A stretch of DNA of 64,000 nt from Escherichia coli. GTDB lineage: Bacteria; Pseudomonadota; Gammaproteobacteria; Enterobacterales; Enterobacteriaceae. Position 1 is the first letter of the stretch. Every line of letters begins with the position of its first letter. Of this stretch, positions 1 through 57,039 are shown one piece after another. The notes under the pieces were generated by a model. The model was not told the DNA's origin. It worked only from the letters and a program-made list of their open reading frames with translations, and did not search any database. Both the position numbers and the translations under genes were made by a program. The stretch is from NCBI RefSeq assembly GCF_003334385.1, contig NZ_QOWN01000006.1, one strand, 5' to 3'.

Positions 1-498
1 GGCACTGCCGGTTCTAAACATCGGGCGATTCTGGCTATCGATGATCTGAATACGTAGACCTTCCTGGACCAGATCGATTTTGAGATGGGGACGTAACGCC
101 CGCAGTTTCGGATCGGACTCTATCAACTGGTCGAGATCACCCCGCAATTTCCGCAATCGACTTTGCTCCATGCGTTTTTTCAGCTCTTCGATGTTCGGCT
201 GCTTATTCACTTCCCCCTGGCTTTGGGTGTAATCATCACCACCGCCGGGAATTGGGCTTTCACTATTAGAAATGCGATCGCCGCCCGTAACCGCAGTCGC
301 CAGTGGAGTCCGGAAGTACTCCGCAATCTGAATCAGCTCTTTTGGGCTGGAGATGGAGATCAGCCACATCACCAGAAAAAAGGCCATCATCGCAGTCATA
401 AAGTCGGCATAAGCAATCTTCCACGATCCATGTGCTGCCCCGTGGCTTTTGGCTTTGCGTCGTTTGACGACAATAATCGGATGCGCTTGATTCTTCAT
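1..498 (-). CDS. motB: Flagellar motor stator protein MotB, 5' portion (first 166 codons; 3' end lies beyond window start)
   Basis: Reverse complement of 481-498 reads ATGAAGAATCAAGCGCAT (MKNQAH), the MotB N-terminus; start overlaps motA stop (ATGA coupling); in frame to position 1. Confidence 0.9.
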
Positions 499-1382
499 GC
501 TTCCTCGGTTGTCGTCTGTTGTTGCGGATTTTTCACCGCACGCACATGCTCTTCCAGTTCAATAAACGACGGACGTTCGCTGGAATAGAGCGTTTTGCGA
601 CCAAACTCAACGGCGATAGGCGGTGCGTAACCGTTCAGATTAGAAAGCAGAGTGACTTTGACGCACTGCATCATTTTGCTGGTTTCGGCGCTTTTCTGAC
701 GTAAAACAGTCGCTAATGGGGAAATAAATCCGTAAGCCAATAAAATGCCGAGGAAAGTCCCCACCATCGCATGTGCGATAAGCGCACCCAGCTCGGCGGC
801 AGGACGATCGGCTGAACCTAACGCGTGAACGACCCCCATTACAGCCGCAACAATACCAAACGCCGGAAGTGAGTCCCCGACCAGCGCCAGACTGTTCGCC
901 GGGACTTCTGCCTCGCTTTCGTGCGTCTCAATCTCTTCATCCATCAGAGCTTCGATTTCGAAGGTGTTCATGTGACCGCTGATAATCAGGCGCAGATAAT
1001 CGACGATAAAATCAAGCATGACGCTATCCGCGAGGATGCGTGGGTAGCTGGCGAAGATCTCGCTCTCACGGGGATTTTCAATATCACGTTCCAGCGAAAA
1101 CATCCCCATCTGCCGCGATTTCGCCATCAACCGATAAAGCAGAGCCAGCAGATCCATATACATTGCTTTGGTGTATTTGGAGCGACGAAACAGCAACGGC
1201 AGCGCCTTCAGCGTGCCTTTAATCGCTTTGCCATTATTGCCGACGATAAACGACCCAATCCCTGCACCGGCAATAATCACCAGTTCAGCGGGTTGATAGA
1301 GTGCTCCAAGGCTTCCACCGGTCATCAAATAACCGCCGAAAACTGTACCGAGAACAACCAGGTAACCTAATAAGATAAGCAC
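495..1382 (-). CDS. motA: Flagellar motor stator protein MotA (295 aa)
   Basis: ORF translation matches MotA in length and sequence; position downstream of flhDC. Confidence 0.96.
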
Positions 1383-1449
1383 GACATCATCCTTCCACTG
1401 TTGACCATGACAGGATGTTCAGTCGTCAGGCGTTAACGCGCGATTGGGG

Positions 1450-1483
1450 CAAAAAAAAGCAGCGGTACGTCGTTACCGCTGCT
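1450..1483 (-). terminator. Intrinsic terminator after flhC (10-bp stem AGCAGCGGTA/TACCGCTGCT followed by T8 on minus strand)
   Basis: Perfect inverted repeat 1459-1483 with A8 on plus strand (U-tract on minus transcript). Confidence 0.75.
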
Positions 1484-1543
1484 GGAATGTTGCGCCTCAC
1501 CGTATCAGTTAAACAGCCTGTACTCTCTGTTCATCCAGCAGTT
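1450..1543 (-). ncRNA. motR: Candidate MotR sRNA (motA 5'UTR-derived, sigma28-dependent)
   Basis: Sigma28-type promoter inside flhC 3' end (1552-1578) plus terminator at 1450-1483 would yield a ~95-nt RNA; published MotR is described as derived from the motA 5'UTR (recalled). Confidence 0.45.
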
Positions 1544-2087
1544 GTGGGATAATATCGGCAGGATTCTGGGAAAGTTTACGTCTTTTTACTGCCCGGGATG
1601 GCGGTTGACATAAGCTGCAGGCAAAGCTGCCAACAGGCTGGTGAGCGTGGGTAATAAAATTGCCGCCGCAGCAGTTGCAGCTGGAAAGTTGCAGTAATCC
1701 ACTTTCAACAAACCGCACCAATGTCCAGGCACGGGTTAATGCCAGCAGTGGTCCTTCTTCTGCTTGTGGGCACTGTTCAAGGTATAAACGGTAGGCTTTG
1801 ATCACCGCATCGACGCCATTACACAAACCGGTTTTCAGTAAAAACTGCCATGCATTACAGAACATCGAAGCATGAACGTTTTGTTCCCAGGTCATAAACC
1901 AGTCGGTTGAGAATGGCAGCATGCCTTTCGGCGGTGGGCTTCCGCGCAGTTCTTTATAAAGTTTTATCAGGCGTCCGCGACTTAACTGTGTTTCGCTTTC
2001 CAGCATCTGCAAACGAGCGCCCAGGGTGATCAATTCCATTGCCAGCTGAATATCCCGCGCTTCCTGAACAATGCTTTTTTCACTCAT
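1509..2087 (-). CDS. flhC: Flagellar master regulator FlhC (192 aa)
   Basis: ORF translation matches FlhC including the C-terminal Cys cluster; adjacent to flhD. Confidence 0.96.
1552..1578 (-). promoter_or_regulatory. Sigma28 (FliA) class 3 promoter for motAB-cheAW: TAAACTTT-N11-GCCGATAT
   Basis: Minus-strand match to sigma28 consensus TAAAGTTT-N11-GCCGATAA located within the 3' end of flhC. Confidence 0.65.
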
Positions 2088-2089
2088 GA

Positions 2090-2440
2090 TCAGGCCCTTT
2101 TCTTGCGCAGCGCTTCTTCAGGCTGATTAACATCATTCAGCAAGCGTGTTGAGAGCATGATGCCGGTATGAATTTGCTGGAGATCGTCAACGCGGGAATC
2201 TTGCGTCAACTGAGTAATCGTCTGGTGGCTGTCAAAACGGAAGTGACAAACCAGTTGATTGGTTTCTGCCAGCTTAACCATTTGCGGAAGAGTCAGTGCC
2301 GCTAACGTTGTCGCCATTTCTTCATTTATGCCGAGACGAAACATAGCGGACGCTTTGTCCTGAACAATCAAACGCTGTGCAAGTAGTAAATATGACAAGT
2401 TGATGTCATAAATGTGTTTCAGCAACTCGGAGGTATGCAT
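2090..2440 (-). CDS. flhD: Flagellar master regulator FlhD (116 aa from MHTSELL; ORF extends to 2449)
   Basis: ORF translation matches FlhD; start trimmed to the annotated [12 protein letters not shown]. Confidence 0.95.
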
Positions 2441-3219
2441 TATTCCCACCCAGAATAACCAACTTTATTTTTATGCGGTTTCACCGCACCCCGTGATGTC
2501 GCCGGGAAGCCCCGGTAAAAAATAATTAGCATTAGAATAGTTGCGATAAGCTGCAATAAGCAGAACCACCTTTTTGGTTTAATATGTCCTTACAAATAGA
2601 AATGGGTCTTTACACTTATCTAAGATTTTTCCTAAATCGACGCAACTGTACTCGTCACTACACGCACATACAACGGAGGGGGGCTGCGATTTTCAATAAT
2701 GTGTGATGCAGATCACACAAAACACTCAATTACTTAACATAAATGTATAAGTCATACTTTTGTTTTGGGTGTATTTCAATCTGTTAAAAAGTTTTTCGCT
2801 ACGCTAGCAAGCAAAAATGAAACAGGAATAATCGAAATGGGATGTTGCGCACAGTCAAAATAACTCACCGTAAATAATCATCTGCTATAAATAATCACTT
2901 TCATGCAATACCAGATAAGCTATTTTTAAACAGACACTTACCGCACAACAAACTAATTAAATACAAAGAAAGGCAACAATCAACTTAATGTTAATGAAAT
3001 GTTTTACATATATTAACCACTTGTTTAATGCGGAGAATCAGTACACTATTTTCTTATAATTACATTTGAAATTATATGATCACCGGGAGTGATTGATTAA
3101 TTGTCTTTACTAATAATCAGGCTAATATTTACCTGTTTGACCGAGTTGGGATTGCGTCGTTTCTCCATTAGGAGTAAAGCTTTAATGTCACCTGAAGTTC
3201 ACAGAATAAGGAACAGGTT
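2441..3219. promoter_or_regulatory. flhDC promoter, long 5'UTR and AT-rich upstream regulatory region; divergent uspC promoter
   Basis: About 780 bp AT-rich non-coding region between divergent flhD and uspC; known regulatory hub in E. coli; no IS element present. Confidence 0.7.
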
Positions 3220-3648
3220 ATGAGCTATAGCAATATTCTTGTCGCTGTTGCGGTTACACCGGAAAGTCAGCAACTGCTGGCAAAAGCGGTATCTATCGCC
3301 AGGCCAGTAAAGGGACACATCAGTTTAATTACTCTCGCTTCCGACCCGGAAATGTACAATCAATTAGCTGCGCCGATGCTTGAAGATTTACGCAGCGTGA
3401 TGCAGGAAGAAACGCAAAGCTTTCTTGATAAGTTAATTCAGGATGCGGGGTATCCCGTTGACAAGACGTTTATTGCCTACGGTGAGTTAAGCGAACATAT
3501 TCTGGAAGTATGTCACAAGCATCATTTCGATTTGGTGATTTGCGGTAATCACAATCACAGTTTCTTTTCGCGAGCATCCTGCTCGGCGAAAAGAGTTATT
3601 GCCTCAAGTGAGGTCGATGTGCTGTTAGTTCCACTTACGGGAGATTAA
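3220..3648 (+). CDS. uspC: Universal stress protein C (142 aa)
   Basis: ORF translation matches UspC/YecG; position between flhD and otsA. Confidence 0.93.
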   Translation: MSYSNILVAVAVTPESQQLLAKAVSIARPVKGHISLITLASDPEMYNQLAAPMLEDLRSVMQEETQSFLDKLIQDAGYPVDKTFIAYGELSEHILEVCHKHHFDLVICGNHNHSFFSRASCSAKRVIASSEVDVLLVPLTGD

Positions 3649-3654
3649 CCGCTC

Positions 3655-7007
<3,353 letters not shown>

Positions 7008-7021
7008 CATACTCTCCTTAC

Positions 7022-8536
7022 TCAGGCAACAGCCTGGCTGACTTTAGGCATCGCAAGGCTCAGTGCCTGACGCTCATCTGCCTGCTCGTGTAACAATTCA
7101 CCGGCGATTTCACCTTCCCGCATCACCACAATCCGGTCGGCAACGCCGAGGACTTCAGGTAAGTCGCTGGAGGCAAACAGCACCGCCACGCCCTGCGCCG
7201 CCAGCGCATAAATTACGTTATATATTTCGTGCTTAGCGCCAACATCAATGCCGCGCGTAGGTTCATCCAGCAAAATGACCTTCATCTCTTCCGATAACCA
7301 GCGGCCCAGAATGGCTTTTTGCTGATTTCCGCCTGAGAGATTCATGATCAGTTGCTCCGCGCCCGGCGTTTTGATGTTGAGCGAACGAATGTGGTGATCG
7401 GCATTGTTTTCTTCCCAACCGTTGTTGATTACACAACCGCCGAGCACATGTTTACGTCTGGCACTGATGTTGATATTGTCGCGAACGGAGTGCACGGGAA
7501 TAATGCCTTCCGCTTTGCGATCTTCCGGGCAGAGCATCATGCCTGCGGCAATGGCGTGGCTCGGTTTACGAATATCGATCGGCTGTTGGTCGATATAAAC
7601 CTGACCGGCGGTGATTTGCGTCCCGCCAAACATGCCTTTCATTAATTCGCTACGCCCCGCCCCTACCAGACCAAACAGCCCAACAATTTCACCACTGCGA
7701 ACCGCCAGACTTATTGGCGTACGCACGCCTGGTGCTTTCACAGCATCAAGACGTAGGCGCTCCTCGCCATAACTACGCGGTTGCCAGCCGTAGATATCGC
7801 CAATGTCGCGCCCGACCATCGCCTGCACCAGCGCGTCGTGGTCAACCTGCTGCATATCGGTAAAGGTTTTGACATAACGTCCATCTTTAAAGACAGTAAT
7901 GGCATCGCTGAGGGCAAATATTTCTTCCATACGGTGAGAAACGTATAAGATTACCCGCCCCTCTTTTCGCAGTTCACGAATAACGCGGAAAAGATTGTCG
8001 ATTTCACGGGCAGAGAGGGAGCTGGTTGGCTCATCAAAGGCGATAATTTTGGCGTTACGCGCCAGCGCTTTGGCGATTTCAACCATCTGCCACTGACCAA
8101 TGGAGAGATATTTCAGCGGCGTGTCCGGGTCAATATCCATACCAAGATGTTTAAGTTGTAAACCCGCCTCATAATTCAGCAATGAGCGATTCACAATGCC
8201 GCCTTTATGCGGCAGCTGGCCGAGATAGATGTTTTCCGCGACGGTCATTTCCGGCACGAGATGCAGTTCCTGGTAAATAATCGCCACGCCCGCGTTAAGT
8301 GCTGCGGTCGTGTCGGAAAAGGACATTTCCTGCCCATTAATCACTACAGAACCCGTGGTTGGCGCATAGTTGCCGCTGAGGATTTTTAAGAGAGTTGATT
8401 TTCCTGCGCCATTTTCACCCATCAACGCATGAACCTGACCGGCATAGCAGTCAAAACTAATATCCGTCAGCGCCTTAACGCCGGGAAACGTTTTACCGAT
8501 GCCGCGAAATGAGAGATACGGGGTAGACTGTTGCAT
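7022..8536 (-). CDS. araG: L-arabinose ABC transporter ATP-binding protein AraG (504 aa)
   Basis: Duplicated ABC ATPase with Walker [10 protein letters not shown]; matches AraG from [10 protein letters not shown]. Confidence 0.95.
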
Positions 8537-8605
8537 AACGTCTCCGTGAATCACTGGTCGTTCACACCCCCTCTGCATCATGCAGAGGGGAATTTTTCCG
8601 GCAAA

Positions 8606-9595
8606 TTACTTACCGCCTAAACCTTTTTTCTCCAGTTCTTCTTTAAAGTTGTCACGCGTGATCAGTACCACGTCGGTAACTTCGGTAAATTTTGGCGGTT
8701 CAACGTCTTTTGCTACCCAGTTGTAAAGCATTTCGCTGGATTTATAGCCATGTACGTCCGGGCTTGGCAGCAGGGAACCGTAGAAGCCGGTTGCCTGTGC
8801 TTTAGACAGTTCGCTCACCGCATCCACACCGTTAATGCCAATGCCGATGATATCGGCCGCTTTAAAGCCCTGACCTTCCGTCGCGCGTACGCCGCCCAGC
8901 ACGGTGCTGTCGTTCATACCGACGATCAGCCAATGTTTAACTTCCGGATGTTGAACCAGCATTGAGTTGGCAGCGTCAAATGCCCCCGGGATGTCGTTAG
9001 ATTTGGTAGGTACCTGATAAATTTGTTTTTCCGGGAATCCGGCCGCTTTCAGCGCATCCATAGATCCCGTAGTACGGCGGCGGGCGGTATCCAGTTCGTT
9101 GGCGGTAATCGCCATCACCGCGCTTTCTTTGACATCCCAGCCACGTTTCTGCATCTCTTTATACAGTTCCTGGCCCTGACGTTCGCCAATTTTAGTCGCC
9201 GCCATCATCACCAGCGGAACGGTATCCATTGGCTTACCTTTGGCGTTAACAAACTGGTCATCCACGGCAATGACTTTCATATCGTAGCCACGCGCTTTCG
9301 CGACGATGGCAGAGCCGAGTTTGGGGTCCGGAGTACAAATAACGAAACCTTTTGCGCCACTGGCAGCCAGGCTGTCGATCGCGTTCAATGTTTTTTCGCC
9401 ATCCGGCACGGCAATCTTAATAACCTCAAACCCTAAATCCTTCCCGGCTTTATCGGCAAACTTCCATTCGGTCTGGAACCACGGCTCTTCCGGTTGCTTC
9501 ACCAGAAAACCGAGCTTCAGGTTCTCCGCCATAGCGGATTGTGACATAACGGCTGCCAGACCAATGGCTGCCAGGGCTTTAGTAAATTTGTGCAT
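8606..9595 (-). CDS. araF: L-arabinose periplasmic binding protein AraF (329 aa)
   Basis: Matches AraF from MHKFTKALAAIGLAAVMSQSAMA (signal peptide). Confidence 0.95.
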   Translation of the reverse strand: MHKFTKALAAIGLAAVMSQSAMAENLKLGFLVKQPEEPWFQTEWKFADKAGKDLGFEVIKIAVPDGEKTLNAIDSLAASGAKGFVICTPDPKLGSAIVAKARGYDMKVIAVDDQFVNAKGKPMDTVPLVMMAATKIGERQGQELYKEMQKRGWDVKESAVMAITANELDTARRRTTGSMDALKAAGFPEKQIYQVPTKSNDIPGAFDAANSMLVQHPEVKHWLIVGMNDSTVLGGVRATEGQGFKAADIIGIGINGVDAVSELSKAQATGFYGSLLPSPDVHGYKSSEMLYNWVAKDVEPPKFTEVTDVVLITRDNFKEELEKKGLGGK

Positions 9596-10391
9596 GGTTC
9601 TCTCCAGCTTTAGTGTCGTTTTGTGTAGGGCAAAAACGAATGACATTCGTTAAATTAATCGGAAAACAAAGCATTACCTTTTAACTAAAAGATAAGTGAC
9701 TGTGTTGACATAGTTTTAGCGAGAAATTAATTCTCCATAGGAGAGCAATATCACATCGCAGAATTACAGTGAGAACGTGCATAAATTTAGCGGGAAAAGA
9801 CATAAGGGAAAGCCAATTTGTCAGACAAATTGTCGAATGCACAGCAGATTAATCCATAAGATTAGCCTAGAAATCCTTGTTGTCTTTGGTACCCATGCGG
9901 GATGTCTTCTTTTTAACCAGTCAATAGGCCGCATTACCTGGCGTTGAGTTTTTGAAATGGTGTAATAACCGCAACTCAAAGATGTGGAAAATGCACGTCA
10001 TTCATTTCGTCATTAATTATCACTGTGCTCATTAATTAACAGAACACGTATAATGAGAGCCATCTCGCAAAAATGAAAAAACGTTTTATAAAATCATCAC
10101 TTCATCATGAATTCAAATTCATTGATTAATATCAACAAGATACAAAAAGCACTATCATTAAAATTCATTGCAGTTACATTGATTTCATCAATGAAATGTA
10201 AAAATATATAAACTTGATGATTTAAGCATTTTCTTATACCCGTTCAGACGTTATTCTTATTTCAGATCATCGTCAGAATTGACTCCACGATCACATTTCG
10301 GACCGGCAGAAAGGAATTATTCTGCAAACAGTAATTATGGTGTTTTGATTTATCTTGCACCTCTCCACTTCTGGATATAAGGATATTAGGT
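9596..10391. promoter_or_regulatory. AT-rich araFGH promoter region (AraC/CRP-controlled in E. coli) and ftnB upstream region
   Basis: About 800 bp AT-rich intergenic region between divergent araF and ftnB. Confidence 0.55.
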
Positions 10392-10895
10392 ATGGCAACC
10401 GCTGGAATGCTTCTCAAACTCAACTCTCAAATGAACCGCGAGTTTTACGCATCCAATCTCTACCTTCACCTGAGTAACTGGTGTTCTGAACAGAGTCTGA
10501 ACGGCACCGCCACTTTCCTTCGCGCCCAGGCACAGAGTAATGTGACCCAAATGATGCGCATGTTTAACTTTATGAAGAGTGTCGGCGCTACCCCCATCGT
10601 TAAAGCCATTGATGTTCCCGGTGAAAAACTGAACTCTCTGGAAGAACTGTTCCAAAAAACGATGGAAGAATACGAGCAACGTTCTAGTACGTTGGCACAG
10701 TTAGCCGATGAAGCGAAAGAACTGAATGATGATTCAACCGTCAATTTCCTGCGCGATCTGGAAAAAGAACAGCAGCATGATGGTCTGTTGCTGCAAACCA
10801 TTCTTGATGAAGTGCGCAGTGCGAAACTTGCGGGTATGTGCCCTGTGCAGACCGACCAACATGTTCTGAATGTCGTGTCACACCAGCTGCATTGA
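10392..10895 (+). CDS. ftnB: Ferritin-like protein FtnB (167 aa)
   Basis: ORF translation matches FtnB/YecI; ferritin fold, paralog of FtnA. Confidence 0.93.
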
Positions 10896-10973
10896 TCATC
10901 ATCGGCGCTAATGCATTGCGCCGATGAAGGTTTTGAGAAACCGCTGCCTCATCTGTTTGAAGCAGCGGTTTTT

Positions 10974-11225
10974 TTAATGGGATTCACCCTGTGGGGTAAA
11001 CTTGAGTTCAATAAGCGCGATGGCTTTTTGGATTGCCCGCATGGTGACCGGGTCTGCGGCGGCGGGATGGTTAGTAAAGTCGATATTCTTCAGCTGACTG
11101 GACATTTTTTCACGAACTTCAACGGGCGCGATTACATCGAGAACATCCAGAATTTGTTTGATAACCAACTGGCAAGCAACCACATCAGAAACCAATTCCT
11201 GATCGGCATTCAGCGGCTGGGACAT
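10974..11225 (-). CDS. yecJ: DUF2766 family protein YecJ (83 aa)
   Basis: ORF translation matches YecJ. Confidence 0.88.
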
Positions 11226-11311
11226 CGTAAACTCCTGATAGCATTTTGAAAGCCGTTATAGTAGCGACTTCACATCTTCAGCGATAGTCACATCCACCGT
11301 CATCAGGACAC

Positions 11312-11339
11312 AAAAAAACCTGCCGGAGCAGGTTTTTTG
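11312..11339 (-). terminator. Intrinsic terminator downstream of azuC (hairpin AACCTGC-CGGA-GCAGGTT flanked by A/T tracts; potentially bidirectional)
   Basis: Inverted repeat 11317-11333 with A7 upstream and T6 downstream. Confidence 0.7.
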
Positions 11340-11426
11340 TTATCGGAACATATTGCCTGGCGGTACGTCTTTGAACGTCTTGCAATAGTTATTGAACATA
11401 CTTTTCAGGATTTTGCGCAGTTTCAT
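11340..11426 (-). CDS. azuC: Small protein AzuC (28 aa: MKLRKILKSMFNNYCKTFKDVPPGNMFR)
   Basis: Manual translation of minus strand gives exact 28-aa AzuC sequence; carried on the IsrB transcript. Confidence 0.88.
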   Translation of the reverse strand: MKLRKILKSMFNNYCKTFKDVPPGNMFR

Positions 11427-11688
11427 CGCGGCACTCCGACCATTTGTTATACAGGTGTTATTGTCTTTGCGCTTATAATATGACAACCATCACAAAAATC
11501 AATCTTTATGTGATACAAATCACATAAATACCCCTTTAATGTTATAAAAATGATAATCAAAAAACAGCCCCCCTATTTCTGACACCTACAGATGGCAAGA
11601 AATAGCGCCTGCCAGGCGTCTTTTCCGGCCATTGTCGCAGCACTGTAACGCGTAAAATAGTGCTTTCTCTTACTCTTCTGGCTGGACC

Positions 11689-12012
11689 ATGAGACTTCTG
11701 ATTCTGACTCTTTCATTAATAACGCTGGCGGGGTGTACGGTTACTCGCCAAGCCCATGTGAGCGAAGTTGACGCGGCAACAGGTATTGTACGGTTAGTTT
11801 ATGACCAGGCTTTTTTGCAGCATGCCCATACCGATCGTTATGTCAGTCGCGGGATCGCCGATCGCGCATGCCAGCAGGAAGGCTATACCCACGCGGTCCC
11901 CTTTGGTCAGCCAGTAGGCAACTGTAGCCTTTTTGCGGGTTCCTTATGTTTGAATACGGAATTCACTTTGTCATATCAGTGCCATCATTCCGCCTTCCCT
12001 GTCTTTCTCTAA
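11689..12012 (+). CDS. yecR: Lipoprotein YecR (107 aa), FlhDC-regulated
   Basis: ORF translation matches YecR with lipobox LAGC. Confidence 0.9.
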   Translation: MRLLILTLSLITLAGCTVTRQAHVSEVDAATGIVRLVYDQAFLQHAHTDRYVSRGIADRACQQEGYTHAVPFGQPVGNCSLFAGSLCLNTEFTLSYQCHHSAFPVFL

Positions 12013-12182
12013 ATATTTTAATCAGCGAGGGGATCTTCGCTGATTAAAGAAATAGCGGTAATGCGTTTTATTCCCATTCGTATTTTTAATAATTGAAGTT
12101 TATATTTTACCTTTTGCAAATAATAAAATAACAAATTATAGTGACGCCACAGCAACAAATATAACCTTTGTGGAGCACTATC

Positions 12183-12680
12183 ATGCTGAAACCAGAAATG
12201 ATTGAAAAACTTAATGAGCAGATGAACCTGGAACTGTACTCTTCACTGCTTTATCAGCAAATGAGCGCCTGGTGCAGCTATCATACCTTCGAAGGTGCTG
12301 CCGCGTTCCTGCGCCGTCACGCCCAGGAAGAGATGACGCATATGCAGCGTCTGTTTGATTACCTGACTGATACCGGCAATTTACCGCGTATTAATACCGT
12401 TGAATCTCCGTTTGCTGAATATTCCTCACTTGATGAATTATTCCAGGAAACCTATAAACACGAACAATTAATCACCCAGAAAATTAACGAACTGGCTCAT
12501 GCTGCAATGACCAATCAGGACTACCCAACATTTAATTTCCTGCAATGGTATGTTTCTGAGCAGCATGAAGAAGAGAAACTGTTCAAATCGATTATTGATA
12601 AATTAAGCCTGGCAGGCAAAAGCGGCGAAGGTCTGTATTTTATCGACAAAGAACTCTCTACCCTCGACACACAAAACTAA
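12183..12680 (+). CDS. ftnA: Ferritin FtnA (165 aa)
   Basis: Matches FtnA from [13 protein letters not shown]. Confidence 0.96.
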
Positions 12681-12687
12681 TGCTCTC

Positions 12688-12713
12688 CGGCGGCAGGTTT
12701 ACTGCCGCCGTTT
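12688..12713. terminator. Bidirectional intrinsic terminator between convergent ftnA and yecH
   Basis: Hairpin CGGCGGCAG-GTTTA-CTGCCGCCG followed by TTT. Confidence 0.7.
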
Positions 12714-12717
12714 CAAA

Positions 12718-12957
12718 TCAGTGACGGCAAATCTTACTCTGATCGGTCGAAAAACCGTCTTTCGAAGGTATAAATTTGCCTTTTGCTGCCAGAAACGCTA
12801 CCAGCTCTCCCGCTGTCATCCCTTCTGCCGAGCAGGTGTGAAAACGTGCCTGTTCACCAAAACGCGCTTTAATCGCAGCTTCCAGACTGGCATGCGTATA
12901 TTGCTCGCCTGATTCAATCATCATATTTAACACTTCATGACCGTGAATAGAGTCCAT
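12718..12957 (-). CDS. yecH: DUF2492 family protein YecH (79 aa)
   Basis: ORF translation matches YecH. Confidence 0.88.
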   Translation of the reverse strand: MDSIHGHEVLNMMIESGEQYTHASLEAAIKARFGEQARFHTCSAEGMTAGELVAFLAAKGKFIPSKDGFSTDQSKICRH

Positions 12958-13147
12958 CGTCCCTCCTCAAAAAAAGCCTAGCGTAGCGATTGCCGCTTAT
13001 GAAGACTTTGCGCCAGCGCAGGACTGAATGCTTTTTATTGTACATTTATATTTACACCATATGTAACGTCGGTTTGACGAAGCAGCCGTTATGCCTTAAC
13101 CTGCGCCGCAGATATCACTCATAAAGATCGTCAGGACAGAAGAAAGC

Positions 13148-14359
13148 GTGAAAAACAGAACCCTGGGAAGTGTTTTTATCGTGGCGGGAACCACAATTGG
13201 CGCAGGCATGCTGGCAATGCCGCTGGCTGCGGCCGGTGTTGGTTTTAGCGTTACGTTAATCTTGTTGATTGGGCTTTGGGCGTTGATGTGCTACACGGCG
13301 CTATTACTGCTGGAGGTGTACCAGCATGTTCCGGCAGATACCGGTCTGGGCACGCTGGCAAAACGCTATCTGGGACGCTACGGTCAATGGCTGACGGGCT
13401 TCAGTATGATGTTCTTAATGTATGCTCTGACTGCGGCATACATCAGCGGTGCCGGTGAATTGTTGGCCTCCAGCATCAGCGACTGGACAGGTATTTCTAT
13501 GTCGGCAACCGCTGGCGTGCTGTTGTTCACTTTTGTTGCCGGTGGCGTGGTTTGTGTCGGAACTTCACTGGTCGATTTATTTAACCGTTTTCTGTTCAGC
13601 GCCAAGATTATTTTTCTGGTGGTAATGCTGGTACTACTGCTGCCGCATATTCACAAAGTGAATCTTTTAACCCTGCCGTTGCAACAGGGGCTGGCTCTGT
13701 CTGCAATCCCGGTGATTTTTACGTCGTTTGGTTTTCACGGTAGCGTGCCGAGTATTGTCAGCTATATGGATGGCAACATTCGTAAGCTACGCTGGGTGTT
13801 TATAATCGGTAGTGCGATCCCCCTGGTGGCATATATTTTCTGGCAGGTGGCGACGCTTGGCAGCATTGATTCAACAACCTTTATGGGATTGCTGGCTAAT
13901 CATGCTGGATTAAACGGGCTGTTACAGGCGTTACGCGAAATGGTGGCCTCTCCGCATGTTGAGCTGGCAGTGCATTTATTTGCTGATTTAGCCCTCGCCA
14001 CGTCATTTCTCGGCGTTGCGTTAGGCTTATTTGATTATCTGGCTGATTTATTTCAGCGTTCAAATACCGTTGGTGGACGGTTGCAAACTGGTGCAATTAC
14101 GTTTCTGCCGCCGTTGGCGTTTGCACTGTTTTATCCACGAGGATTTGTGATGGCGCTGGGTTACGCCGGTGTGGCGCTGGCGGTACTGGCATTGATTATC
14201 CCTTCGCTGTTGACCTGGCAAAGCAGAAAGCACAATCCTCAGGCGGGTTACCGGGTCAAAGGTGGTCGTCCGGCGCTGGTGGTGGTGTTTCTCTGTGGTA
14301 TTGCTGTGATTGGCGTGCAATTTTTGATTGCGGCAGGGTTGTTACCAGAAGTGGGGTGA
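13148..14359 (+). CDS. tyrP: Tyrosine:H+ symporter TyrP (403 aa)
   Basis: ORF translation matches TyrP; polytopic membrane protein. Confidence 0.95.
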
Positions 14360-14420
14360 TCAGATAGCCTCAAATTCCTTATTGGGTGCCAGAATTAACG
14401 CTGACACCCAATTTGGCCTC

Positions 14421-15086
14421 TTAATGCAGGCAGCACTGCTTAAATTTCTTACCACTACCGCACGGGCAAGGATCGTTACGCCCCGGTTTCTCTTCTGCTT
14501 TGATCGGTTGCTGAACAGCTTTTTCCTGCGGATGCGCCATCCAGTACGCATGTAGATCAAGCGCCGCCAGTCGAATGGCATCTACGCTCTCTTCAAACGC
14601 TTCTGGCGACATCTTTTCTACCCGCTCGAAGTTTTCCTCAGTACCGTGCAGCGCAATCGCCTCCAGCGCTGGTTTTAACGAATCGGGCAACGTTGACCAG
14701 TCAGAAAGTGCCACGCCCCGCATATAGCCAAAGCACCACTCCTCAACAATCGTCAGCTCGCTGCCATCAACTTCTCGCAAGCCGAATAACGGCTCAAACT
14801 GCTCCGGGAATTCGTTCAGACGCTCTGCGGTATCGGCCATATGTTGAAAAGCCAGATTCATAAAGCGCGTCATCTCTTTCTCTGACGCCCAGCGCGGCAC
14901 ATAGTCAGCCCCACCCCACACGGCAACCAGCCACTGTTCCGGTTCAATCTCTTGCGGAGAACTCAACACCGCCGTCAATAAACCGTCCAGCTCCGCCACA
15001 TCAAGGATGGCGTGGTCAGTGTTGTATTTGGTCAGAATATCGTCCAGCCATTCCAACTCACTTTCGTTTAACGGTCCCGTTTTCAT
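14421..15086 (-). CDS. yecA: SEC-C motif metal-binding protein YecA (221 aa)
   Basis: ORF translation matches YecA; C-terminal [13 protein letters not shown] motif. Confidence 0.93.
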
Positions 15087-15211
15087 ACGCTTTTCCTTGT
15101 GGATCTCAACTCGCCAGCACCTATCTTACATGCCGGTCCGTATCAGAGATACTTTTTGAGTGGCTTTGCTGGTGATTAAAAATTAAGGAGGGTGTAACGA
15201 CAAGTTGCAGG

Positions 15212-33394: not shown

Positions 33395-33502
33395 TCCCTC
33401 ATTCCCGCTGTGGCCAACAGCGGGAATATCGTTGCCTCTGTACCACATAGATTTTACCCGCCCCCTCTCCTATTCTTTTCAGTGTGCTCTCAGGAGGTTG
33501 CT

Positions 33503-34171
33503 ATGTGTGGACGCTTTGCCCAATCCCAAACGCGTGAAGATTACCTTGCGCTTCTCGCGGAAGATATTGAACGCGATATTCCCTATGATCCCGAACCCAT
33601 TGGCAGATACAACGTCGCGCCGGGAACCAAAGTTCTTCTGCTCAGTGAACGTGATGAACACCTTCATCTGGATCCGGTTTTCTGGGGATATGCTCCCGGA
33701 TGGTGGGATAAACCGCCGCTGATTAACGCCCGCGTAGAAACTGCGGCCACCAGTCGTATGTTTAAACCGCTCTGGCAACATGGTCGGGCAATCTGTTTTG
33801 CCGATGGCTGGTTTGAGTGGAAAAAAGAAGGCGACAAAAAACAGCCTTATTTTATCTATCGTGCTGACGGACAACCTGTTTTTATGGCCGCGATAGGTAG
33901 CACACCGTTTGAGCGCGGTGACGAAGCCGAAGGATTTTTAATTGTCACTGCAGCAGCAGACCAGGGTCTGGTAGATATTCATGACCGCCGCCCGCTGGTA
34001 CTGTCGCCAGAAGCTGCGCGGGAATGGATGCGGCAAGAGATTGGCGGTAAAGAAGCATCAGAAATTGCTACCAACGGCTGTGTGCCAGCAAACCAGTTCA
34101 CCTGGCACCCGGTATCGCGCGCGGTAGGTAATGTCAAAAACCAGGGCGCGGAGTTAATTCAACCTGTTTGA
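33503..34171 (+). CDS. yedK: SOS-response-associated peptidase YedK (abasic-site processing, HMCES ortholog), 222 aa
   Basis: Matches YedK from MCGRFAQSQTREDYL (catalytic Cys2). Confidence 0.94.
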   Translation: MCGRFAQSQTREDYLALLAEDIERDIPYDPEPIGRYNVAPGTKVLLLSERDEHLHLDPVFWGYAPGWWDKPPLINARVETAATSRMFKPLWQHGRAICFADGWFEWKKEGDKKQPYFIYRADGQPVFMAAIGSTPFERGDEAEGFLIVTAAADQGLVDIHDRRPLVLSPEAAREWMRQEIGGKEASEIATNGCVPANQFTWHPVSRAVGNVKNQGAELIQPV

Positions 34172-34563
34172 TAAGCCAGGAGACTATTGATCAATAATAC
34201 TGCGTCATAAGAAATCTCTATTAGACAAAGTAGACGCTCCTTCCACATGCGCCACAAGAAACCTCTATTCCAGTGACACAATTACGCCTGATTATTTCCC
34301 TAGCCCGGAATATGAATAAAAACATCAACAAAGATTAAATTATTCAAACGTTACTGTTGCGTCTGCGGTCGTAACAACATCCGACGTGGTGATGTGTATC
34401 AAATGAGGCCTCTGATGATCAGAGGGTTTATCGCGTATACGGATCGTGGATGGCAGAAAACTTTCAGAATCAGGTTTCCATTTTAAACCAGAAATTGAGT
34501 GAGTTTGCCCCATCCATGCCCCACGCGGTGAGATCGGATGTAATTAACAACAGGTTACAAAAC

Positions 34564-34878
34564 CTACACCTGCATGCTCATCACTTCCTGATACGCCGCC
34601 ACCAGCTTATTACGCACCTGAATCCCCATTTGCATAGAAACTGAGGCTTTTTGCATATCGGTCATCACATCGTTTAACGCCACGCCGGGTTCACCGAGAG
34701 TGAATTTTTCTGCCTGCGTGCGGGCAGCTGTTTGTGTATCACTAATGCGATCGAGCGCGGCGTGCAGCTGCCCGGCAAAACTAATGGTCGGTTGCGGCAG
34801 TGATTCCTGCGCACGCGCACTCATCGCCGTAGCCTGTAACTGGCTGATAACCCCTTCAATCCCCTGTATCGCTGACAT
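34564..34878 (-). CDS. fliE: Flagellar hook-basal body protein FliE (104 aa)
   Basis: Matches FliE from [15 protein letters not shown]. Confidence 0.96.
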
Positions 34879-35092
34879 TCTCGTCTCCCGGATAATTTCT
34901 GGTAGCAAAGCCTACCAGTAAGTCAATAAGACAAAGGCGCTAAATAACAACAAAAAAACGGGTTTATTGGCGGATAGAAAAAAACGAAAGCACAAATAAT
35001 GGGAGCGTCAATTTTTCGAGTTTGCTGACCCGGGAGTGAGTCTTGTTCCACTTTGCCAATAACGCCGTCCATAATCAGCCACGAGGTGCGCG
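34879..35092. promoter_or_regulatory. Divergent fliE / fliF class 2 (FlhD4C2-dependent) promoter region
   Basis: Intergenic region between divergent fliE and fliFGHIJK; known class 2 architecture. Confidence 0.6.
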
Positions 35093-38417
<3,325 letters not shown>

Positions 38418-55669: not shown

Positions 55670-55980
55670 ATACCTTCATTAATGTGCGCGTGATCACACC
55701 AAGTGTTTAGCGCAACAATCATTGATACTCCCTATCTTTCCGCTTAACTCATAACATATTGATATACATTTATAATTTTCATGAATATTTATATTTGGAA
55801 TTCATGATTCTGAATTATATTAAATAGATTAGAAACATTTTGAAATCTTTTAAATACATTTGTTGCATGTAATCCTTAAAATAAAATGAAGTTCATAGAA
55901 TAGTATCCAAATGTGCTTTTTTTTGGATAACGGCACTTATTGATATATTCATGAAGATTATAATCACAAGGGAATACATA

Positions 55981-57039
55981 ATGAAAAGAAAAGTTCTGGC
56001 AATGCTGGTCCCGGCGTTATTAGTTGCTGGCGCAGCAAATGCGGCTGAAATTTATAATAAAAATGGCAATAAACTGGATTTGTACGGCAAGATGGTTGGT
56101 GAGCGCATTCTGACCGACCGTGAAAATGGTGAAAAAGGCGATAATTCTCAAGATACCTCTTATGCCCGTGTAGGCGTGAAAGGTGAAACTCAGATCAACC
56201 CTGAATTGACTGGTTACGGTCAGTTTGAACTAGACCTGGAAGCATCAAACAGACACAACCCTGACCAAACTCGTTTGGCTTATGCTGGTTTGAGTTACAA
56301 AGATTTTGGTTCATTCGACTATGGTCGTAATGTCGGTGTCGCGTATGATGCAGAAGCATTTACTGATATGTTTGTTGAGTGGGGCGGTGATTCATGGGCT
56401 GGTACTGACCTGTTCATGACCAACCGTACCAACGGTGTTGCAACCTATCGTAACACAGATTTCTTTGGCATGGTTGAAGGTCTAAATTTTGCTCTGCAAT
56501 ATCAGGGTAAAAATGAAGGTACAGGCAACTACAAAGCAAATGGCGATGGCCATGGTTTATCTGTAACTTACACTATTGACGGTTTCTCATTTGCTGGTGC
56601 TTACGCAAACTCTGATCGTACTGATTTCCAGTCTAGTGATAGTAAAGGTGAAAAAGCAGAAGTTTGGGCACTGTCAACAAAATATGATGCCAACAACGTC
56701 TATGCTGCTGTGATGTACGGTGAATCTCACAACATGAATTCCGACGACGGTGATGTTGTGAACAAAACACAAAACTTCGAAGTTGTTCTGCAATATCAGT
56801 TCGACTTCGGTCTGCGTCCATCCATCGGTTACTCCTATTCTAAAGCACTGGACGTAGCAGGTTACAAAGATTCTGATCGTCTGAACTACATTGAAATCGG
56901 TACCTGGTATTACTTCAATAAGAACATGAACGTATATACCGCTTATCAGATCAACCTGCTTGATAAGAGTGATTATGTTCTCGCTCATGGACTGAACACC
57001 GACGACCAACTCGCATTTGGTATCGTCTACCAGTTCTAA
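55981..57039 (+). CDS. yedS: Outer membrane porin YedS, intact (352 aa), OmpC/OmpF family
   Basis: Signal peptide MKRKVLAMLVPALLVAGAANA, trimeric porin hallmarks and C-terminal ...FGIVYQF; same position as the yedS pseudogene fragments of K-12. Confidence 0.93.
   Translation: MKRKVLAMLVPALLVAGAANAAEIYNKNGNKLDLYGKMVGERILTDRENGEKGDNSQDTSYARVGVKGETQINPELTGYGQFELDLEASNRHNPDQTRLAYAGLSYKDFGSFDYGRNVGVAYDAEAFTDMFVEWGGDSWAGTDLFMTNRTNGVATYRNTDFFGMVEGLNFALQYQGKNEGTGNYKANGDGHGLSVTYTIDGFSFAGAYANSDRTDFQSSDSKGEKAEVWALSTKYDANNVYAAVMYGESHNMNSDDGDVVNKTQNFEVVLQYQFDFGLRPSIGYSYSKALDVAGYKDSDRLNYIEIGTWYYFNKNMNVYTAYQINLLDKSDYVLAHGLNTDDQLAFGIVYQF

Follow-up and report, generated by a model that had tools for sequence, protein, structure and literature searches.

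The compact yedK-fliE junction of Escherichia coli as a probable reduced prophage scar at the 3' end of fliE

The yedK and fliE genes of Escherichia coli converge on a short gap, described here for a 64,000-nucleotide stretch of contig NZ_QOWN01000006.1 (hereafter the window). yedK, encoding a 222-aa SOS response-associated peptidase, occupies 33503-34171 on the plus strand, and fliE, encoding the 104-aa flagellar hook-basal body protein, occupies 34564-34878 on the minus strand. Both are open reading frames, and both are annotated by RefSeq in E. coli CP53, where the stretch 33400-35100 is 100% identical to the window and nothing is annotated between the two genes. From the yedK stop (34171) to the fliE stop (34564) the gap spans 34172-34563, or 392 bp, in agreement with the roughly 390 bp given by a first-pass annotation of this DNA. 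That annotation had also seen no open reading frame of 60 aa or more in the gap. Indeed, the largest one lying wholly inside it has 57 aa (34340-34513, minus strand), while a 64-aa frame (34450-34644, plus strand) only starts there and then runs antisense into fliE across the last 27 fliE codons. This 64-aa frame reads through the attachment core described below and corresponds to the frame annotated as the intG pseudogene in MG1655. It exists only because an 11-bp deletion took out an integrase stop codon.

The gap is equally poor in regulatory signals. A scan for terminator-like and promoter-like sites found none within it, as had been suspected for terminators of the two converging genes, and the GC-rich stem followed by a T-run that marks a Rho-independent terminator is lacking there for both yedK and fliE; the sole terminator hit of 33900-35100 lies within fliE. 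Rfam 15 covariance models searched against 33900-35100 at E <= 1 gave no match, and RNA folding of both strands of the whole gap gave a z of about -1.65, which is not significant. Beyond 33400-35100, identity to CP53 is only 97.8-98.9% where the window aligns to it, positions 1-15204 have no alignment, and the 3' end of yedK diverges by 5-13% among E. coli alleles. With a 1.7-kb identical stretch set against the rest of the window, the surroundings of the junction look like a recombination mosaic.

In K-12 (MG1655, CJ236) the same two stop codons lie 2,210 bp apart, and the gap contains yedL, a yedN pseudogene and intG, the last labelled 'cryptic prophage PR-G'. The yedN pseudogene belongs to DUF5503 and is a relative of the EspR leucine-rich-repeat effectors. 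The first-pass annotation had placed in K-12 a segment of several kb carrying yedL, yedN, yedM and intG, and had named an equal 390-bp spacing in K-12 as the observation that would overturn its reading. With 392 bp against 2,210 bp in the alignment, the window is indeed not K-12-like at this junction, and the MG1655 annotation agrees that yedL and yedN lie between yedK and fliE; the size given was too large and the idea of a single segment does not hold. By blastn, all 392 bp of the window gap occur in K-12, divided into three pieces: 33400-34230 aligns up to 59 nt beyond yedK, 34231-34297 equals the 67-bp spacer between yedL and yedN, and 34294-35100 aligns at 97.8% from just beyond yedN to fliF. 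The extra DNA of K-12 therefore forms two separate blocks, a yedL block of 603 bp at window position 34230|34231 and a yedN block of about 1,212 bp at about 34297|34298. Each is made up of a single gene and the 5' region belonging to it, the yedL block also including a hairpin after the stop, and the yedN block has a GC content of 34%. Inspected by eye, the ends of both blocks have no target duplications, microhomology or terminal (inverted) repeats, and no mobility genes are associated with either. A search of the K-12 boundaries for direct repeats or att-like sequences, as had been proposed, thus yields no target repeats at the block ends and an att core at the fliE 3' end.

While yedL and yedN are missing from the window as supposed, intG is not. 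The MG1655 intG feature (b1936, 2012502-2012780) corresponds to window positions of about 34365-34644, and intG is therefore retained here, as a remnant at about 34400-34563. The remnant has the same locus, orientation and sequence as intG/PR-G of MG1655; the two differ towards yedK, where MG1655 has yedL and the yedN pseudogene in addition and the window has spacers only.

These spacers can be followed one by one from the yedK side. The 16 nt past the yedK stop (34172-34187) are common to all junction forms, and homology to the UPEC 536-type loci and to locus L010 stops at 34187; they would represent the original spacer between yedK and fliE. Next, as judged from the blastn breakpoints and the sequences themselves, comes the spacer found in front of yedL in K-12 (34188-34230), followed by the 67-bp spacer between yedL and yedN (34231-34297) and by the non-coding spacer that separates yedN from intG in the K-12 alignment (34298-34399). 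This last segment has no phage match and no RNA-family match. The first two spacers each contain one copy of a 22-nt direct repeat, D1a at 34201-34222 and D1b at 34248-34269, which are 25 bp apart and identical at 19 of 22 positions. Both copies are kept in the window, and the pair brackets the point at which yedL sits in K-12. Alleles with yedN only (locus L005 and strain UTAK-1) have a single hybrid D1 copy, and yedL was therefore lost in them by recombination between two D1 copies.

On the fliE side, 34400-34547 on the plus strand contains the last ~50 codons of a tyrosine integrase gene, as recognized by tblastn, blastn, the mapping of MG1655 and PGAP calls. These 148 bp amount to the last 12% of the gene. 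The encoded protein matches the integrase of Escherichia phage IdasGreatGrand (PP925829) at 40 of 45 aa (89%), over residues 387-431 of 435, with E = 4e-19 in a tblastn search of a phage collection, and that of Enterobacter phage CobraSix (NC_071003) at 84%. At the DNA level, 34400-34583 aligns by blastn to IdasGreatGrand at 170 of 196 nt (87%), through the last ~160 nt of int and 37 nt past its stop. The IdasGreatGrand integrase comprises an Arm-DNA-bind_2 domain and a Phage_integrase catalytic domain. Both phages have a complete integrase (435 aa and 431 aa, respectively) and an excisionase, and their int reads towards the att site as it does in the window. Unlike theirs, the window copy is limited to the last ~12% of int (residues ~383-431 of 435), is frameshifted by a 1-nt deletion at its 5' edge, and has lost its stop codon to the 11-nt deletion. 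So truncated and disrupted, it cannot be functional. In related genomes with near-identical alleles, PGAP annotates an 'integrase' fragment at the same place.

The inverted repeat reported by the first-pass annotation lies within this remnant. It exists, at 34409-34425, which is 9 bp to the right of the 34400-34416 where it had been placed; the repeat scan delineates it as a palindrome, CCTCTGATgATCAGAGG, with 8-nt arms and a 1-nt loop. It aligns to CACTCTGATGCTCAGATGG of IdasGreatGrand, which encodes HSDAQM, and it varies between alleles and from the intact int gene. The comparison indicates that the palindrome arose incidentally as dead coding sequence took up substitutions and a 1-nt deletion. 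A role of its own, as a terminator or an att-like element, was considered and rejected on the strength of the same alignment to integrase coding sequence.

Immediately downstream, at 34548-34583, lies the att core CAACAGGTTACAAAACCTACACCTGCATGctCATCA, which overlaps the fliE stop and the last six codons of the gene and is recognized by its identity to a phage attP and by its repeats flanking prophages. Its first 29 nt, CAACAGGTTACAAAACCTACACCTGCATG (34548-34576), are identical in the window and in the IdasGreatGrand attP, and they contain the reverse complement of the fliE stop and of the last fliE codons. The att stretch at the fliE 3' end reads ...CTACACCTGCATG..CATCA, and similarity between phage and chromosome stops after CATCA in both, leaving the shared segment of identity expected of an attB. 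The proper annotation would thus be an integrase pseudogene fragment at 34400-34547 and an att core at 34548-34583. Such an arrangement recalls e14 and phage 21, which integrate in the 3' end of icd and supply a replacement gene end. As there, a phage copy of the last codons of the target preserves the host protein, in this case FliE; in contrast to e14 and phage 21, the target gene and the integrase lineage are different and only seven codons are replaced. A literature search on the fliE integration site, on intG/PR-G and on the yedK junction found no relevant report in the collection of papers covered.

Full prophages at this position make the att assignment tangible. The IdasGreatGrand int gene, searched against complete E. 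coli genomes, revealed a full-length integrase abutting fliE in six of them. In UTAK-1, the space between fliE and an older int fragment is filled by an intact P22-like prophage of 38.7 kb, with int, xis, portal, capsid and tailspike among its genes; beyond the older fragment come an intact leucine-rich-repeat gene and then yedK. Direct repeats of the core flank this prophage. At its far junction the core...CATCA is followed by TATGACCATG..., the same sequence as that to the right of the IdasGreatGrand attP core, and the fliE-side junction has the phage version of the core, with FliE still ending in MSMQV through a synonymous AGC-to-TCC change in a serine codon. In another example, a 13-kb prophage in decay separates fliE from a compact junction in FLI21, again flanked by direct core repeats and containing a frameshifted int, xis, bet/exo, IS5, a GtrA-family gene and a family-2 glycosyltransferase gene. 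The FLI21 compact junction is identical to window 34172-34583 at 402 of 412 nt, and a phage has therefore integrated into the compact allele itself. With integrated prophages in UTAK-1 and FLI21 that have int at one end and core repeats on both sides, these genomes point to the fliE 3' end as a live attachment site at which the scar would still work as attB. Their junctions make it unlikely that IntG-type phages integrate elsewhere and resemble the fliE side through common int sequence alone. Among IMG/VR viral contigs, more than 120 contain the int 3' motif, mostly 22 nt from the contig end; the exact attP core together with the phage sequence to its right had 0 matches there. Judged from sequence, the fliE 3' end is the probable attB of a family of temperate phages, which would be the cause of the hotspot.

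The window itself is not bracketed by two cores. A single core, at fliE, is found in the window, K-12, yedL-only, yedN-only and O157 alleles, and two copies occur only in the 536-type, IS200/605-type, UTAK-1 and FLI21 loci. Local alignment near yedK did not find another att relic in either the window or K-12 (score 20 against 17.9 +/- 2.3 for shuffled sequence), and it gave a clear positive in UPEC 536 (38 against 19.6 +/- 2.3). Lacking such a relic in the window and K-12-type alleles, we therefore infer, rather than read directly, a prophage origin for 34188-34399.

UPEC 536 provides the clearest view of both ends. Its gap contains a porin gene, ybcM, ybcL and emrE, which presumably resemble part of the K-12 prophage DLP12. 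The right boundary of this island is the int remnant (from 34428) plus core, and the left boundary is a relic of the fliE 3' end, CTACACCTGGATGGACATCA, which starts 16 nt past the yedK stop. This DLP12-like remnant shares with the window its attachment site and the fliE-side int remnant from 34428, and differs in keeping 4.3 kb of cargo and the second core relic 16 nt past yedK, both of which the window lacks. Judging by the left relic, the site before any integration would have consisted of the yedK stop, 16 nt and the fliE stop. A synthetic query for such an unoccupied junction matched the predicted relic exactly over its first 47 nt.

At least seven junction configurations were seen, which supports the earlier suggestion that this junction varies between strains, and a survey of its cargo, likewise proposed then, turned up yedL, yedN/espR, porin-ybcM-ybcL-emrE, IS200/IS605 and prophages. 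All four combinations of yedL and yedN presence and absence occur, including a yedL-only allele, and in strain 2014C-3338 yedL is frameshifted. O157:H7 has a diverged tandem duplication that starts in the middle of yedL, takes in the 67-bp spacer, espR and the spacer after it, and extends to the int remnant; its junction falls at CAACAGGT, inside the att core of the first int remnant, which is joined to the middle of the second yedL. In O157:H7 strain 2-6-2 (locus L006, 14930-15000), the two copies of the espR3/espR4 tandem duplication are only 95.9% identical, and the duplication is therefore either old or assembled from two sources. In strain EC24 (locus L007, 6760-8356), an IS200/IS605 element, with tnpB and tnpA both pseudogenes, has inserted at the stop codon of yedK and changed the final codons of that gene; the left att relic follows shortly after the element, at 8437.

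Frequencies were obtained from 5,426 complete E. coli genomes. The compact junction is present in 1,014 of these (18.7%), and an emrE-type right junction, belonging to the emrE-ybcL-ybcM-type remnant, in about half (2,621/5,426). The yedL block was found in 1,287/5,426 and the yedN/espR block in 1,531/5,426. By comparison, the 136 bp adjoining fliE (34428-34563) occur in 5,302/5,426, or about 98%, and the synthetic unoccupied junction in 0/5,426.

Taken together, the 392-bp spacer is very probably the most reduced allele of a prophage scar, the intG/PR-G of K-12, between yedK and fliE, and every surveyed complete E. coli genome that retains the junction in all likelihood carries that scar. Temperate phages with an IntG-type tyrosine integrase (Arm-DNA-bind_2 plus Phage_integrase) would recombine their attP with the fliE 3' end. 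Their copy of the core would re-create the FliE C-terminus and so keep fliE intact, and the resulting prophage would lie between fliE and yedK with int beside fliE. Later deletions would remove the prophage interior, leaving the 3' end of int and the core at fliE and, towards yedK, cargo that varies between alleles. The window would have been left with non-coding spacers and 148 bp of int, yedL and yedN having gone, most likely by two separate deletions. yedL, yedN and the spacers would accordingly count as former prophage cargo, as their position and the analogy with FLI21 and UPEC 536 suggest. At low stringency, the K-12 yedL/yedN region matched 50,697 phage genomes in its int remnant alone, and this comparison could not show a phage origin of the yedL, yedN and spacer cargo.

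That the compact form arose by two deletions, rather than the K-12 form by two insertions, is a reading towards which we lean. Conversely, the compact allele could be the older one, with yedL (603 bp) and yedN/espR (about 1,212 bp) inserted later and independently, 67 bp apart. The window has both D1 repeats, three intact spacers and clean junctions, each K-12 block is a single gene with its own 5' region, the yedN block at 34% GC looks foreign, and the four presence/absence combinations all exist. This order of events is nonetheless the less probable one, as neither block has the target-site duplications, terminal repeats or mobility genes of an insertion, and the duplicated module of O157:H7, with copies 4% diverged, places genes and spacers side by side long ago. 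The genes are also decaying, yedN being a pseudogene in K-12 and yedL frameshifted in 2014C-3338, which fits loss. Furthermore, a deletion series is seen directly at the locus (38.7 kb, 13 kb, 4.3 kb and 2.2 kb), and the compact junction, at 0.39 kb, is the end point of this decay at one attachment site.

A pristine, never-occupied intergenic region from which intG is absent too would account for the gap having no open reading frame of 60 aa or more and for RefSeq placing no feature there in CP53. It has next to no probability given the integrase remnant and att core, the mapping of the gap onto MG1655 intG, the PGAP 'integrase' fragment in near-identical alleles, and an unoccupied junction in none of the 5,426 genomes. 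The empty site implied by the first-pass annotation is thus replaced by that prophage scar in its most reduced form, with the integrase remnant retained, and alignment to phage integrase genes refutes the pristine-site reading. A further alternative is that selection keeps the segment, as a 3' UTR or terminator of fliE, as a regulatory hairpin formed by the palindrome, or for the 64-aa frame at 34450-34644. The persistence of 34428-34563 in 5,302 of 5,426 genomes, an integrase remnant at the same place in Franconibacter pulveris and the failure to find another terminator for fliE or yedK would all suit it. We consider this improbable: the folds are unremarkable (z about -1.65) and have no Rfam family, the palindrome is not the same in all alleles or in the intact gene, and the 64-aa frame is owed only to the 11-bp deletion of the int stop. 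Persistence is possible even without selection for the segment, since deletions reaching fliE are counter-selected and new integrations supply the int-proximal copy. Improbable too is a broader proposal in which the fliE 3' end is the primary attachment site of a large, apparently undescribed family of P22-like/lambdoid phages and the scar, found in about 98% of E. coli and also in Franconibacter, persists through having been co-opted, either as the fliE 3' UTR/terminator or as a reusable landing pad. If true, a landing pad would put effector, porin and efflux cargo beside the flagellar regulon.

Integration at the fliE 3' end followed by decay of the prophage scar through deletion therefore explains why the junction varies between strains and why it had stood out as an insertion hotspot. 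Seen this way, the compact junction is an ordinary, common allele of an already known and annotated prophage scar. The spacing between yedK and fliE is usable as a simple typing marker and has little importance beyond annotation.

Outside E. coli, a YedK scan of GTDB genomes returned no Escherichia species except a contaminant MAG, and only Franconibacter was informative. Franconibacter pulveris has the order yedE, yedF, yedK, acyltransferase, integrase fragment and fliE, and its homology to the window resumes at 34429. In Franconibacter (locus L082, 8636-8860; locus L084, 6800-12669), a C-terminal integrase fragment adjoins fliE at the same site as in E. coli and an acyltransferase-3 gene follows yedK, with phage tail-fibre-like genes also present in F. 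helveticus. The fliE attachment site thus appears to be used across genera. The closest YedK homologues in other Enterobacteriaceae (63-88% aa identity; loci L011-L089) are mostly not beside yedE/yedF or fliE, and several genomes have two yedK copies, for instance Enterobacter hormaechei (L015, L031) and Citrobacter gillenii (L013, L026), which suggests mobility or duplication of this SRAP gene. A yedS-like porin gene is the neighbour of yedK in some Citrobacter genomes. The window itself has an intact 362-aa open reading frame at 55951-57039 on the plus strand, at the position of a porin gene annotated in CP53; its K-12 counterpart, yedS, we take to be a pseudogene. Relatives of this porin gene adjoin yedK both in UPEC 536 and in some of the Citrobacter genomes.
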